The notes below the pieces were generated by a model, which was not told where the DNA came from, did not search any database, and saw only the letters and a list, made by a program, of their open reading frames with translations. A stretch of 64,000 bases of DNA from Candidatus Zixiibacteriota bacterium (lineage in GTDB: Bacteria; Zixibacteria; MSB-5A5; GN15; JAAZOE01). Where the stretch lies: the NCBI GenBank assembly GCA_036480375.1, contig JAZGGI010000016.1:156806-220805 (forward strand). Direction: 5' to 3'. Positions 53,422-56,189 of the stretch are shown here, one piece after another. Both the position numbers and the translations under genes were made by a program. How positions within the stretch are numbered: position 1 is the stretch's first letter; each line of letters starts with the position of its first letter.

Positions 53422-54162
53422 ATGCGCAAAATATTGATTAGTGTATTCTTGACAATCCTGCTAACGGTGTTTATATCTTCGCAGATAATAGCTGTACCCA
53501 AAATGTTTCTTCCCGAAACTTCATTTGATTTTGGGTTTGTTCCGCAGAACTGCAAAGTGTCTCATGTATTCTGGATTAAGTCAGTTGGGGATGATTCGCT
53601 GAAGATATTAAACGTAAAGCCTGGCTGAGGCTGCACTAAGGCTCCGTTAACAAAGAAGGAGCTCGCTGTCGGTGACAGCACCGAATTAGAAATTATTTAT
53701 TCGACCGGTAAGAAAGTTGGCCCGTCCAGTAAACGACCCGCAATTTCAACCAATGAAGGTCCGCCAACCAAGCGGATTACTATTAAGGTACACTCCGTTC
53801 GCCAGCCTGACTCGACCTATCCGGTAGTGATTAAACCTTATCGCGTTTATGTTTCTCGAGCAGGTAAAGTCGAAGTTGACGAAGCCAAATTTACGGTAAC
53901 CAATGTCTCAGACGAAGATCTGGATTTGAAAATAGTGAGTGAGCCATATGGTTATTTACAAATTGATTTGCCTGATGAAGTAAAAGCCGGCGAAACGGCT
54001 GAATGCAAAATAAAGGTCAATGAGGATCACCTCAATCAAAGTTTCGAAAAATCGATTACGTTGGAGCTCAACGACCCAACCAAAACGCGTTTTTCCATTC
54101 CTATTATCAGGCGATTAATAGGAGGCAAAAAAGCACAGGCCAGTAACGCTGGTTCACGATAA
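53422..54162 (+). CDS. Exported DUF1573-like protein, candidate selenoprotein (in-frame UGA at 53626-53628 read as Sec)
   Basis: Track ORFs 53422-53628 and 53827-54162 share a frame, and there is no other stop between them. The joined product reads ...FDFGFVPQNCKVSHVFWIKSVGDDSLKILNVKPG-U-GCTKAPL.... A GGAGGA SD, a signal/anchor peptide and a strong terminator downstream are all present. Confidence 0.6.
53640..53663 (+). other. Candidate SECIS-like hairpin for the DUF1573-like gene
   Basis: The stem GGCUCC / GGAGCU (one G-U pair) starts 11 nt after the UGA. The loop is GUUAACAAAGAA. A second, perfect hairpin GCUGUC-GGU-GACAGC follows at 53665-53679. Confidence 0.35.
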
Positions 54163-54188
54163 AAAACAAATTCTTTAAGCAATTTACG

Positions 54189-54216
54189 ACCGCCGATTTT
54201 TTCGGCGGTTTTTTTT
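54189..54216 (+). terminator. Rho-independent terminator after the DUF1573-like gene
   Basis: ACCGCCGA-ttttt-TCGGCGGT followed by T7. Confidence 0.85.
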
Positions 54217-54220
54217 GCCC

Positions 54221-54249
54221 TTTACGTGGGCGCAAAAATATTGTATTAT
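54221..54249 (+). promoter_or_regulatory. Candidate sigma70 promoter of the HesB-like gene
   Basis: TTTACG (54221-54226), a 17-nt spacer, then TATTAT (54244-54249). Confidence 0.4.
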
Positions 54250-54320
54250 GAGTTTCTGGAAATTTTAACGACGACCGATAAAAGACCTAAAGAAGACCAA
54301 CATAGAATCGGGAGATATTG

Positions 54321-54689
54321 ATGGTAACCATCTCAGAACTTGCCTCTGTGGAGCTTAATAAAGTTATGCAGTCTGAAAACGCCAGGGGAAAAAGTTTATT
54401 TGTCAATTTCATGGGGTATGGTTGAAGCGGACCCGTCCTGGGTTTGGCTCTGGATGAGCCGGAAGAAGGTCTGACCAACTTTAATTCCAAAGGTATAGAA
54501 GTATTTATGCACTCCGCTTTAGCGGATCAATTGCAGCAATTTGGGGGCGTATCTATTGACTTTATAGATGAGGGGCCCGACCGCAGGGGATTTGTGATTG
54601 CGACTAATAACAAACCCGCGGGGCATGATTGCAAAGGATGCAATACCGATTCGGGGTGTAGTTCCGAGGAAGATAATAAAGGCGAATGA
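54321..54689 (+). CDS. HesB/IscA-like protein, candidate selenoprotein (in-frame UGA at 54423-54425 read as Sec)
   Basis: ATG 54321 follows a GGGAG SD. The first 34 codons run into a TGA and then continue in the same frame as track ORF 54444-54689. The product reads ...SLFVNFMGYG-U-SGPVLGLALDEPEEG...IDFIDEG...HDCKGC, colinear with IscA (..GCSG.., ..DF..EG.., C-terminal CxxC-like). Confidence 0.65.
54443..54463 (+). other. Candidate SECIS-like hairpin for the HesB-like gene
   Basis: GGCUC-UGGAU-GAGCC (54446-54460), extendable by two U-G pairs and one U-A pair. The loop starts 28 nt after the U of UGA. An alternative hairpin lies at 54428-54446 with loop GUCCU. Confidence 0.35.
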
Positions 54690-54696
54690 AAACAAT

Positions 54697-54728
54697 TAAA
54701 AAAAAGAGCCGGCATATTACCGGTTCTT
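54697..54728 (-). terminator. Terminator between the convergent HesB-like and GWxTD genes
   Basis: A 9-bp stem AAGAGCCGG / CCGGTTCTT (one G-U pair), followed by a T-run on the minus strand. Confidence 0.6.
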
Positions 54729-54758
54729 GAGATCATAAACACATTCCGAGACAGAATT

Positions 54759-56189
54759 CTACCAATCATTGTCTCTTGAATCTCGCCAATCGCTATCAGT
54801 ATCATCTTCTTTATCAAGAATCTGTTGCCAGACGGGATCATATTTCTCTCTCGGATGAGTCGAATGAACTAACCTGTAATCGCCGATCTGAGCCATGAAA
54901 TCATTGACAAATACGAATATTTTGCGACCGTCCAAATTATAATAGGTCCATTTTTGATACGGATAACTGCGGCCTTCCATTTCAACCGTTTCAGCGTCAT
55001 TATACGGACCATAAGTAATATATATCCGGCCGCGGTCGGTTTTCCAGCCATCTTTGGTATCGGAGCGAGTCGATAACATCTCATTGGCGAATACAAATCT
55101 CCGAATCGCTTCTTCATATACGGGATTTTTCGCGTCGGATGGGTCATCATCCCTGGTTCGCCAGAACTGATGAATAAAATTCTTTTTGCCCTCAATCGAT
55201 AATTTGTCAATCTGGATTTTCTCGGCTTCAGAAAGATGATAATATGCTATATTCCTCATCAGTTCAACATCTTCAATCGAATACTGTTTTTGGGCGAGTT
55301 CGGACGCAACTATCGAAATCGCTTTGGAAGCCAAAGTCTTTGCGCCGGTAGCCGCATCGGTAACCTCAAAAATCAAATAATAATCCCCCGTGGGTATCGA
55401 AGGCAGTTCCAAACAATTAACAACAACTGCCGATGTTCCGGGCTTATCTTTGGCTTGGCCTCCGAAATCATGTATTAAATTCCCGTTCATGTCCTTAAGG
55501 GAATAATTGGTAAAAAACTTTTTAATTTTGGCGGAGGTAAATTCTTCCTCGAAAGATAATCCGTATAACTCGGCATAGACCCAGATATGTTTATTCAAAA
55601 ATGCTTGATATCGGCCGGTTGGATTCGGAATTACGACCCGATCCTGTTTTATCAATCGATTATTGACAGGTGAATCATCATCTAAATTCAAGGTTGATAT
55701 CTCAAAAGCCACCTGTAAGTCGCTACACCTAAGACCCGGCTGAAAATAATCAGGAATTTCGGCAACGATAGTATTCCGGCTCGATTTTTTGGAGACATCA
55801 TCCACGGCCGAACACAAAATACGATAGTGACCGGGATCCAAATGCAGACCCAATAAATCAAAAAGCTGTATCCCCTGCCTCAGACTTTCTTCACGGTCTT
55901 TTACTCGGCTTAGAAAATATGTTGATGCAGAATCCAGTGCAGCGCCTGATTCATCATACGCGATTGCCGACAAATAAACACCGGCATAAAGATATTCGCT
56001 CGTATCAGAACCAATAAAGCCCAGTTCATCACGATTCAATCCGCAATATATCTCGATATATGGCCGCTTTTCCGCCAAATCGGCATAAGATGCGTAATCG
56101 GTTAAAAATGTCAAAGAATTACCGGTCGCTCCGGAAATACTTCCCAGAGCTAAAAGCGCAATTGCAAATGCCAGAATGATCCGTATCAT
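54759..56189 (-). CDS. GWxTD domain-containing exported protein
   Basis: 476 aa with a signal peptide and a C-terminal DGWKTDRGRIYITYGPYND. Confidence 0.7.
   Translation of the reverse strand: MIRIILAFAIALLALGSISGATGNSLTFLTDYASYADLAEKRPYIEIYCGLNRDELGFIGSDTSEYLYAGVYLSAIAYDESGAALDSASTYFLSRVKDREESLRQGIQLFDLLGLHLDPGHYRILCSAVDDVSKKSSRNTIVAEIPDYFQPGLRCSDLQVAFEISTLNLDDDSPVNNRLIKQDRVVIPNPTGRYQAFLNKHIWVYAELYGLSFEEEFTSAKIKKFFTNYSLKDMNGNLIHDFGGQAKDKPGTSAVVVNCLELPSIPTGDYYLIFEVTDAATGAKTLASKAISIVASELAQKQYSIEDVELMRNIAYYHLSEAEKIQIDKLSIEGKKNFIHQFWRTRDDDPSDAKNPVYEEAIRRFVFANEMLSTRSDTKDGWKTDRGRIYITYGPYNDAETVEMEGRSYPYQKWTYYNLDGRKIFVFVNDFMAQIGDYRLVHSTHPREKYDPVWQQILDKEDDTDSDWRDSRDNDW

Follow-up and report, generated by a model that had tools for sequence, protein, structure and literature searches.

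Positions 54321 to 54689 on the plus strand of the window, by which we mean the whole 64,000-nucleotide stretch of a Candidatus Zixiibacteriota genome analyzed here, very probably hold a genuine selenoprotein gene related to HesB and IscA. In this reading, which draws on the reading frame, profile matches, fold, and orthologs, an in-frame UGA at codon 35 is decoded as selenocysteine (Sec) by means of a hairpin in the mRNA; the parts that we infer are that SelB binds this hairpin and what the product does biochemically. The family itself is already known, and the Zixibacteria gene adds a fairly ordinary member to it. HesB-like proteins are a listed prokaryotic selenoprotein family, with 11 bacterial members counted by Zhang et al. 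2006 (PMC1794560), and Table 1 of a 2026 review gives their motif as UxGP and their model as TIGR01911 (PMC13188914). Both sources agree with the initial annotation of this DNA, which took the family to be previously listed. One HesB-like selenoprotein was confirmed in Methanococcus maripaludis by 75Se labelling, and its role there is still obscure (PMC11097638). Our literature search found no paper describing selenoproteins of Zixibacteria.

The frame of the gene can be followed directly. Six nucleotides after a Shine-Dalgarno sequence (GGGAG, 54310–54314, plus strand, read from the sequence) comes the ATG at 54321, from which 34 sense codons run into TGA (54423–54425, codon 35) and on, in the same frame, into the table-11 open reading frame 54444–54689. 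The gene thus has 122 codons and ends at a TGA stop (54687–54689), and codons 34–38 of the joined 122-aa product read G-U-S-G-P, an assignment supported by alignment and by homologous loci. These coordinates reproduce those of the initial annotation, which had also expected standard gene callers to miss or truncate the gene. That expectation is borne out by the public protein for the locus (P0002), an 81-aa fragment corresponding to the back half of the gene, and by orthologous contigs, on which the gene is split into calls of 34 aa and 80–83 aa. For one ortholog (L014:1917–2276, JGI Ga0272443_10034102), the public call puts Trp at the Sec position (GFGWSGP), an annotation artefact that presumably arose through the choice of a code with TGA as W.

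Profile searches place the product in the neighborhood of known families while leaving it under their thresholds. It matched NCBIfam NF038090 (IscA_HesB_Se) at E = 9e-16 and 58 bits, below the curated cut-off of 85; TIGR01911 (HesB_rel_seleno) at E = 7e-9 and 36.2 bits against a cut-off of 66.35, over residues 2–81 only; and TIGR00049 (IscA/SufA/ErpA) at E = 4e-7 and 30 bits, below the cut-off of 58.8. All of the Zixibacteria forms tested scored 52–61 bits on NF038090, likewise under the cut-off. Because the scores on NF038090 and TIGR01911 fall short, we consider the protein a diverged relative that lies outside the recognized members of those models. A Pfam-A scan of the 122-aa product returned no family at E <= 1, and this includes PF01521 (Fe-S_biosyn), the family to which the initial annotation had proposed aligning it. 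The proposed colinearity with E. coli IscA fared better, since a phmmer/HMMER search against the PDB matched that protein (1r94) at E = 2e-4 and reproduced all three of the blocks in question. In this alignment, U35 falls on the ligand Cys35 of G-C-S-G, the IDFIDEG block on LDFVKEG, and C104 and C107 on Cys99 and Cys101. The proposal that the UGA occupies the position of a conserved ligand Cys is upheld by the same alignment and by the presence of Cys there in 13 homologous loci. The C-terminal cluster C104-x2-C107-x5-C113 (54630–54659, plus strand; codons 54630–32, 54639–41, and 54657–59) was placed from the IscA alignment, the ortholog alignment, and a structural model.

The model, made with AlphaFold2 from 18 homologs, has a mean pLDDT of 82, with values above 85 over residues 1–104 and a disordered tail at 105–122. 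The best ten Foldseek matches in the PDB were IscA, SufA, DsrR, and HesB-like proteins, each at a probability of 1.00, with E = 4.5e-7 and a TM-score of about 0.6–0.75 (normalized to target length) for the A-type carriers. As modeled, then, the product has the A-type Fe-S carrier fold of the HesB/IscA kind. A canonical Cys-type A-type carrier is encoded elsewhere in the genome (L036, C50:43885–44202, minus strand; TIGR00049, 122 bits), so the Sec-type gene of the window is an additional paralog and not the housekeeping carrier. Of the features by which HesB-like selenoproteins are recognized in the literature, those found here are domain homology, UxGP at the first Cys, Cys homologs, and a SECIS-like hairpin together with Sec machinery.

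That machinery is complete in the window's genome, a 3.59-Mb MAG of 50 contigs that is 97% complete. The sel genes, which the initial annotation had suggested looking for elsewhere in the genome, were found: selA (494 bits) and selB (319 bits; C7:16339–18189) are adjacent on contig C7, both above cut-off; selD (L010) lies at C26:126288–127211 on the minus strand (383 bits); and a 95-nt tRNA-SeC with anticodon tca is on C10. The selD gene carries one in-frame TGA, and its product is therefore itself a Sec-containing selenophosphate synthetase. TGA terminates 392 of 1563 long open reading frames (25%) in this genome, and the HesB-like gene and three of its orthologs themselves end in TGA. Since TGA is a normal stop for long reading frames and also ends this gene and the three orthologs, it has not been reassigned, and a changed code was rejected on stop-codon usage. 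As far as gene content can tell, the combination of the gene and the full machinery confirms the view of the initial annotation that this organism decodes UGA as Sec.

The UGA is kept far more widely than in this one genome. Among loci gathered from protein, genome, and metagenome collections and by scanning 201 of the phylum's genomes, codon 35 is TGA in 40 distinct loci and TGC or TGT in 13, and it is never Trp at the DNA level. Within the phylum sample, 122 of the 201 genomes (about 60%) have a homolog at E <= 1e-10. An in-frame TGA lies within 122 of the 130 matches, the exact position having been established for the 40 loci that were fetched, and the Cys form occurs alone in only two genomes. 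When the 12 closest Sec forms are compared, an invariant amino acid is specified by at least two synonymous codons at 13 of the 34 positions upstream of the TGA. This synonymous variation at invariant residues indicates that the N-terminal part is translated, in frame with what follows, and that selection acts on its protein sequence; amino-acid conservation with free synonymous variation is found on both sides of the TGA. Judged from these aligned loci, the pattern of TGA retention is far beyond chance. A maximum-likelihood protein tree requires at least six changes between Sec and Cys, with the Cys forms nested among the Sec forms. Three loci titled “uncultured Ignavibacteriales bacterium” (L021, L023, and L024) carry a Zixibacteria-type gene with its DUF1573/GWxTD neighborhood, and because they are nested inside the Zixibacteria clade of the protein tree, their taxonomic titles may be wrong.

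In some genomes, both forms are present. Five loci of family f4, from the same order (L049, L059, L060, L061, and L063, in genomes G122, G093, G054, G052, and G186, respectively), have coexisting Sec and Cys paralogs, arranged in tandem or no more than about 1.7 kb apart. Methanococcus has similar pairs of Sec and Cys isogenes, and the f4 arrangement could be a backup under selenium limitation. Another locus (L070, G034:C1:3474026–3474803) has two tandem HesB-like copies that both contain Sec; one of them has diverged strongly and has an end branch of 1.47 in the protein tree.

The element that would direct Sec insertion is a hairpin at 54446–54460 (plus strand), identified by folding and comparative data, with a 5-bp stem, GGCUC/GAGCC, and the loop UGGAU, which begins 25 nt after the UGA. 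In this genome, the stem can be extended to 8 bp over 54443–54463. The folding energy is −7.6 kcal/mol for the core and −10.3 kcal/mol (z = −3.9) for the extended form, and the hairpin taken in isolation stands at z = −3.3 to −3.9 against shuffles. The 58-nt stretch after the UGA folds no better than shuffled sequence (z = −0.78), and the argument for a SECIS consequently rests on comparative data. These separate the two forms of the gene sharply: all five core pairs form in 39 of 40 Sec loci, but in just one of the 13 Cys loci (Fisher p = 6e-10, with no phylogenetic correction). The same holds within single genomes with tandem Sec/Cys paralogs, where the Sec copy forms five of five pairs and the Cys copy one to four. 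The 12 close Sec forms have a synonymous entropy of 0 at codons 38, 43 (GCU), 44 (CUG), and 46 (GAG), with codon 45 almost as low; at codons 38, 43, 44, and 46, the Cys forms have 0.8–1.5 bits, and the other invariant four- or sixfold codons of the gene have 1.3–2.4 bits.

The hairpin loop starts with UG in all 40 Sec loci, and a G conserved within the apical loop of bacterial SECIS elements is given in a published figure legend (PMC1794560). Further features of bacterial SECIS elements are also found, namely, a stem-loop 3′ of the UGA, the early position of that loop G, and retention in Sec forms with decay in Cys forms. The second stem pair varies among G-U, G-C, and A-U; it is the only variable pair, and no two-sided change relative to the commonest pair was found. 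With a stem so short and almost invariant, true covariation is minimal. Nucleotide conservation is also partly driven by the protein, since the hairpin codons specify the conserved peptide A-L-D-E-P. An Rfam scan of 54200–54800 at E <= 10 gave only chance-level sRNA matches and no SECIS family. Taken across the aligned loci, the 54446–54460 hairpin tracks Sec and is a candidate SECIS, with an RNA-level constraint confined to Sec forms. A single Cys-form ortholog with TGC, on metagenome contig Ga0114920_10105768 (L033:1501–1749), retains an intact GGCUC-UGGAU-GAGCC, likely a “fossil” SECIS from a recent change of Sec to Cys.

The hairpin also ties the window's gene to an established family. Sec genes of Desulfovibrio (L026 and L028) are true members of NF038090, at 118–121 bits against the cut-off of 85, and their 15-nt hairpin has the very same sequence and lies equally far from the UGA; this identity of hairpin and offset links the Zixibacteria element to the recognized family. 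It also answers the suggestion, made with the initial annotation, that the gene be compared with known Sec-containing HesB-like sequences and their SECIS structures. In the Desulfovibrio MAGs, a Sec copy lies about 500 nt upstream of the NF038090 Cys copy (Sec codon at 2601 and Cys codon at 3097 in L026; 2450 and 3004, respectively, in L028). The matched site in L028 was rejected as a Sec example because that copy is the Cys form, with the Sec copy about 550 nt upstream.

A second hairpin was considered for the same role. The initial annotation had described two alternative hairpins after the UGA, and both exist; the one at 54446–54460 proved to be the conserved SECIS candidate, while that at 54428–54446 is only partly conserved. 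The latter, seen by folding and in the comparative data on the plus strand, has the form GGACCC-GUCCU-GGGUUU (54429–54445) with the loop GUCCU, −7.8 kcal/mol, and z = −1.8. We consider it improbable that Sec is inserted by means of this first hairpin or of a composite of the two. The two hairpins can coexist, as a composite would have it, and 34 of the 40 Sec loci, versus 4 of 13 Cys loci, encode Pro38 by CCC, CCC/GGG being the core of the first hairpin. However, its outer pairs fail in 11–13 of 30 Sec forms, four Sec loci have CCG at Pro38, and its z-score is the weaker. It forms in Cys genes too, since the G-P-x-L-G codons largely dictate it. Only the second hairpin separates Sec from Cys forms. 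The first hairpin probably plays an accessory or spacing part and not the discriminating one, and the preference for CCC at Pro38 in Sec forms leaves room for an accessory role.

The remaining alternatives concern the UGA itself. If TGA 54423 were a true stop, the locus would be a pseudogene or two reading frames, one of 34 aa and one of 81 aa from TTG 54444. These fragments are precisely what the public gene calls contain, and TGA does act as a normal stop in this genome. However, the same TGA recurs in 40 distinct loci, which come from across the phylum and from Desulfovibrio and show purifying selection before and after the codon, and 13 homologs have Cys at that very codon. From an 81-aa fragment, the fold's first strand and helix would be missing, and both halves stay in frame at 31–86% identity, unlike a pseudogene. 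We regard a true stop as scarcely credible. Nor does an error of sequencing or assembly account for the codon; the genome is a 50-contig MAG, but the same codon appears in independent assemblies from many samples, and we give this explanation next to no weight.

It is also conceivable that the UGA is read through without Sec, by a near-cognate tRNA for Trp or Cys or under a reassigned code, with the hairpin merely stimulating read-through. The JGI call that has the orthologous TGA as W would fit this account, which we nevertheless judge very improbable. The genome has selA, selB, selD, and tRNA-Sec; a codon that ends a quarter of the long reading frames is hardly reassigned; homologs have Cys at this position and never Trp at the DNA level; and the UxGP motif belongs to a family verified with 75Se. 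Decoding of the UGA as Sec through the second hairpin is the reading that we retain.

The surroundings of the gene say little about its function. Upstream, on the same strand, the product of 53422–54162 is a DUF1573 protein of 246 aa whose N-terminus resembles a signal peptide. Codon 69 of this gene is likewise an in-frame TGA, in the motif G-U-G-C, which makes the gene a second selenoprotein gene next door. The DUF1573 gene is followed by an intrinsic-terminator-like hairpin with a T-run (54188–54210, plus strand; 9-bp stem with six G-C pairs), which separates its transcript from the HesB-like gene, and then by a promoter-like site, TTTACG-17-TATTAT, with 9 of 12 consensus matches (54221–54249, plus strand). 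From its match to the consensus, this site is a candidate for the HesB-like gene's own promoter. Downstream, a hairpin at 54709–54723, CCGGCATATTACCGG, lies between the HesB-like gene and a convergent GWxTD operon on the minus strand; it was scored as a minus-strand terminator and may also terminate the plus-strand HesB-like gene. On this arrangement of signals, the gene looks monocistronic. The order DUF1573, HesB-like, and convergent GWxTD is kept throughout the window's family wherever a locus has sufficient flanking sequence. In ten more distant genomes of the phylum, the DUF1573/GWxTD neighborhood is absent, and no Fe-S assembly neighbors were found; conserved operon context was consequently rejected as a functional clue, as it holds only within the window's family. 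Fe-S assembly genes were not found near the window's HesB-like gene either; a carrier function is suggested by its homology.

Put together, these elements suggest how the gene may work. At the UGA, the mRNA hairpin GGCUC-UGGAU-GAGCC, which sits in the codons for the invariant A-L-D-E-P, would recruit SelB and Sec-tRNA(Sec) to the ribosome, and Sec would be inserted at codon 35 of a cytoplasmic, 122-residue protein of the HesB/IscA fold. Sec35 would replace the first cluster or iron ligand, Cys35 in E. coli IscA, and together with C104, C107, and C113 it would presumably bind or transfer a cargo, which may be iron, an Fe-S cluster, or something thiophilic of a related kind. Several parts of this scheme were observed as such: the single frame, the UGA at the ligand site, the alternation of Sec and Cys, the RNA constraint seen in Sec forms only, the fold, and the machinery. 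By its sequence, the protein is a putative Fe-S or iron carrier. A broader proposition would hold that the Zixibacteria clade is phylum-wide and almost obligately Sec-containing yet uncaptured by curated models, that its SECIS has been frozen since before the split from the Desulfovibrio branch or was transferred, that Sec35 is a true ligand of an Fe-S or iron cargo, in a carrier distinct from the genome's housekeeping Cys-type IscA, and that, in the window's family, the small pair formed with the gene for the exported DUF1573 selenoprotein is selenium-dependent. Taken as a whole, this proposition strikes us as doubtful.

The gene has some practical bearing. Recognizing it puts right a misannotation shared by all related assemblies, where the locus appears as an 81-aa hypothetical protein or a split gene. 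In the phylum as sampled, HesB-like selenoproteins occur almost universally, yet they fall under the cut-offs of the NCBIfam models that would name them. The SECIS hairpin, base for base the same in Zixibacteria and Desulfovibrio, offers a simple search pattern for the family, and the natural Sec/Cys pairs, some of them in tandem, provide material to probe the role of Sec at an Fe-S ligand position.

Among known systems, the NF038090 proteins of Desulfovibrio (L026 and L028) share the fold family, the Sec column, and UxGP followed by L-x-L-A-L-D-E-P. The 15-nt hairpin and its offset, a Cys-rich C-terminal tail, and the coexistence of Sec and Cys forms are likewise common to both. The Zixibacteria protein differs in an insert of roughly five residues (E-G-P-D-R-R) before the last strand and in a longer acidic tail, and a long branch and scores below 85 bits set its clade apart from the Desulfovibrio proteins. 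With the proteins of TIGR01911, it shares the small size and a UxGP motif whose Sec takes the place of the HesB domain's first conserved Cys. Archaeal HesB-like members have their SECIS elements in the 3′-UTR, whereas the SECIS candidate in the window lies within the coding sequence, and the score on TIGR01911 is below the cut-off. IscA, SufA, and ErpA (PDB 1r94, 1s98, 1x0g, and 2d2a) have the same fold and the same ligand positions (Cys35, Cys99, and Cys101), but in the window's protein the first ligand is Sec, and the C-terminus has C-x2-C-x5-C, that is, C-K-G-C plus a third Cys, in place of C-G-C. Bacterial SECIS elements of the fdhF type likewise form a coding-sequence hairpin not far beyond the UGA, in which a G is conserved close to where the apical loop begins. 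The window's stem is short (5 to 8 bp), lacks a bulged U, and has the loop UGGAU rather than GGUC. A bSECIS consensus, numeric limits included, was reportedly set out by Zhang and Gladyshev in 2005; the spacing between UGA and hairpin in the window is larger than in E. coli fdhF.
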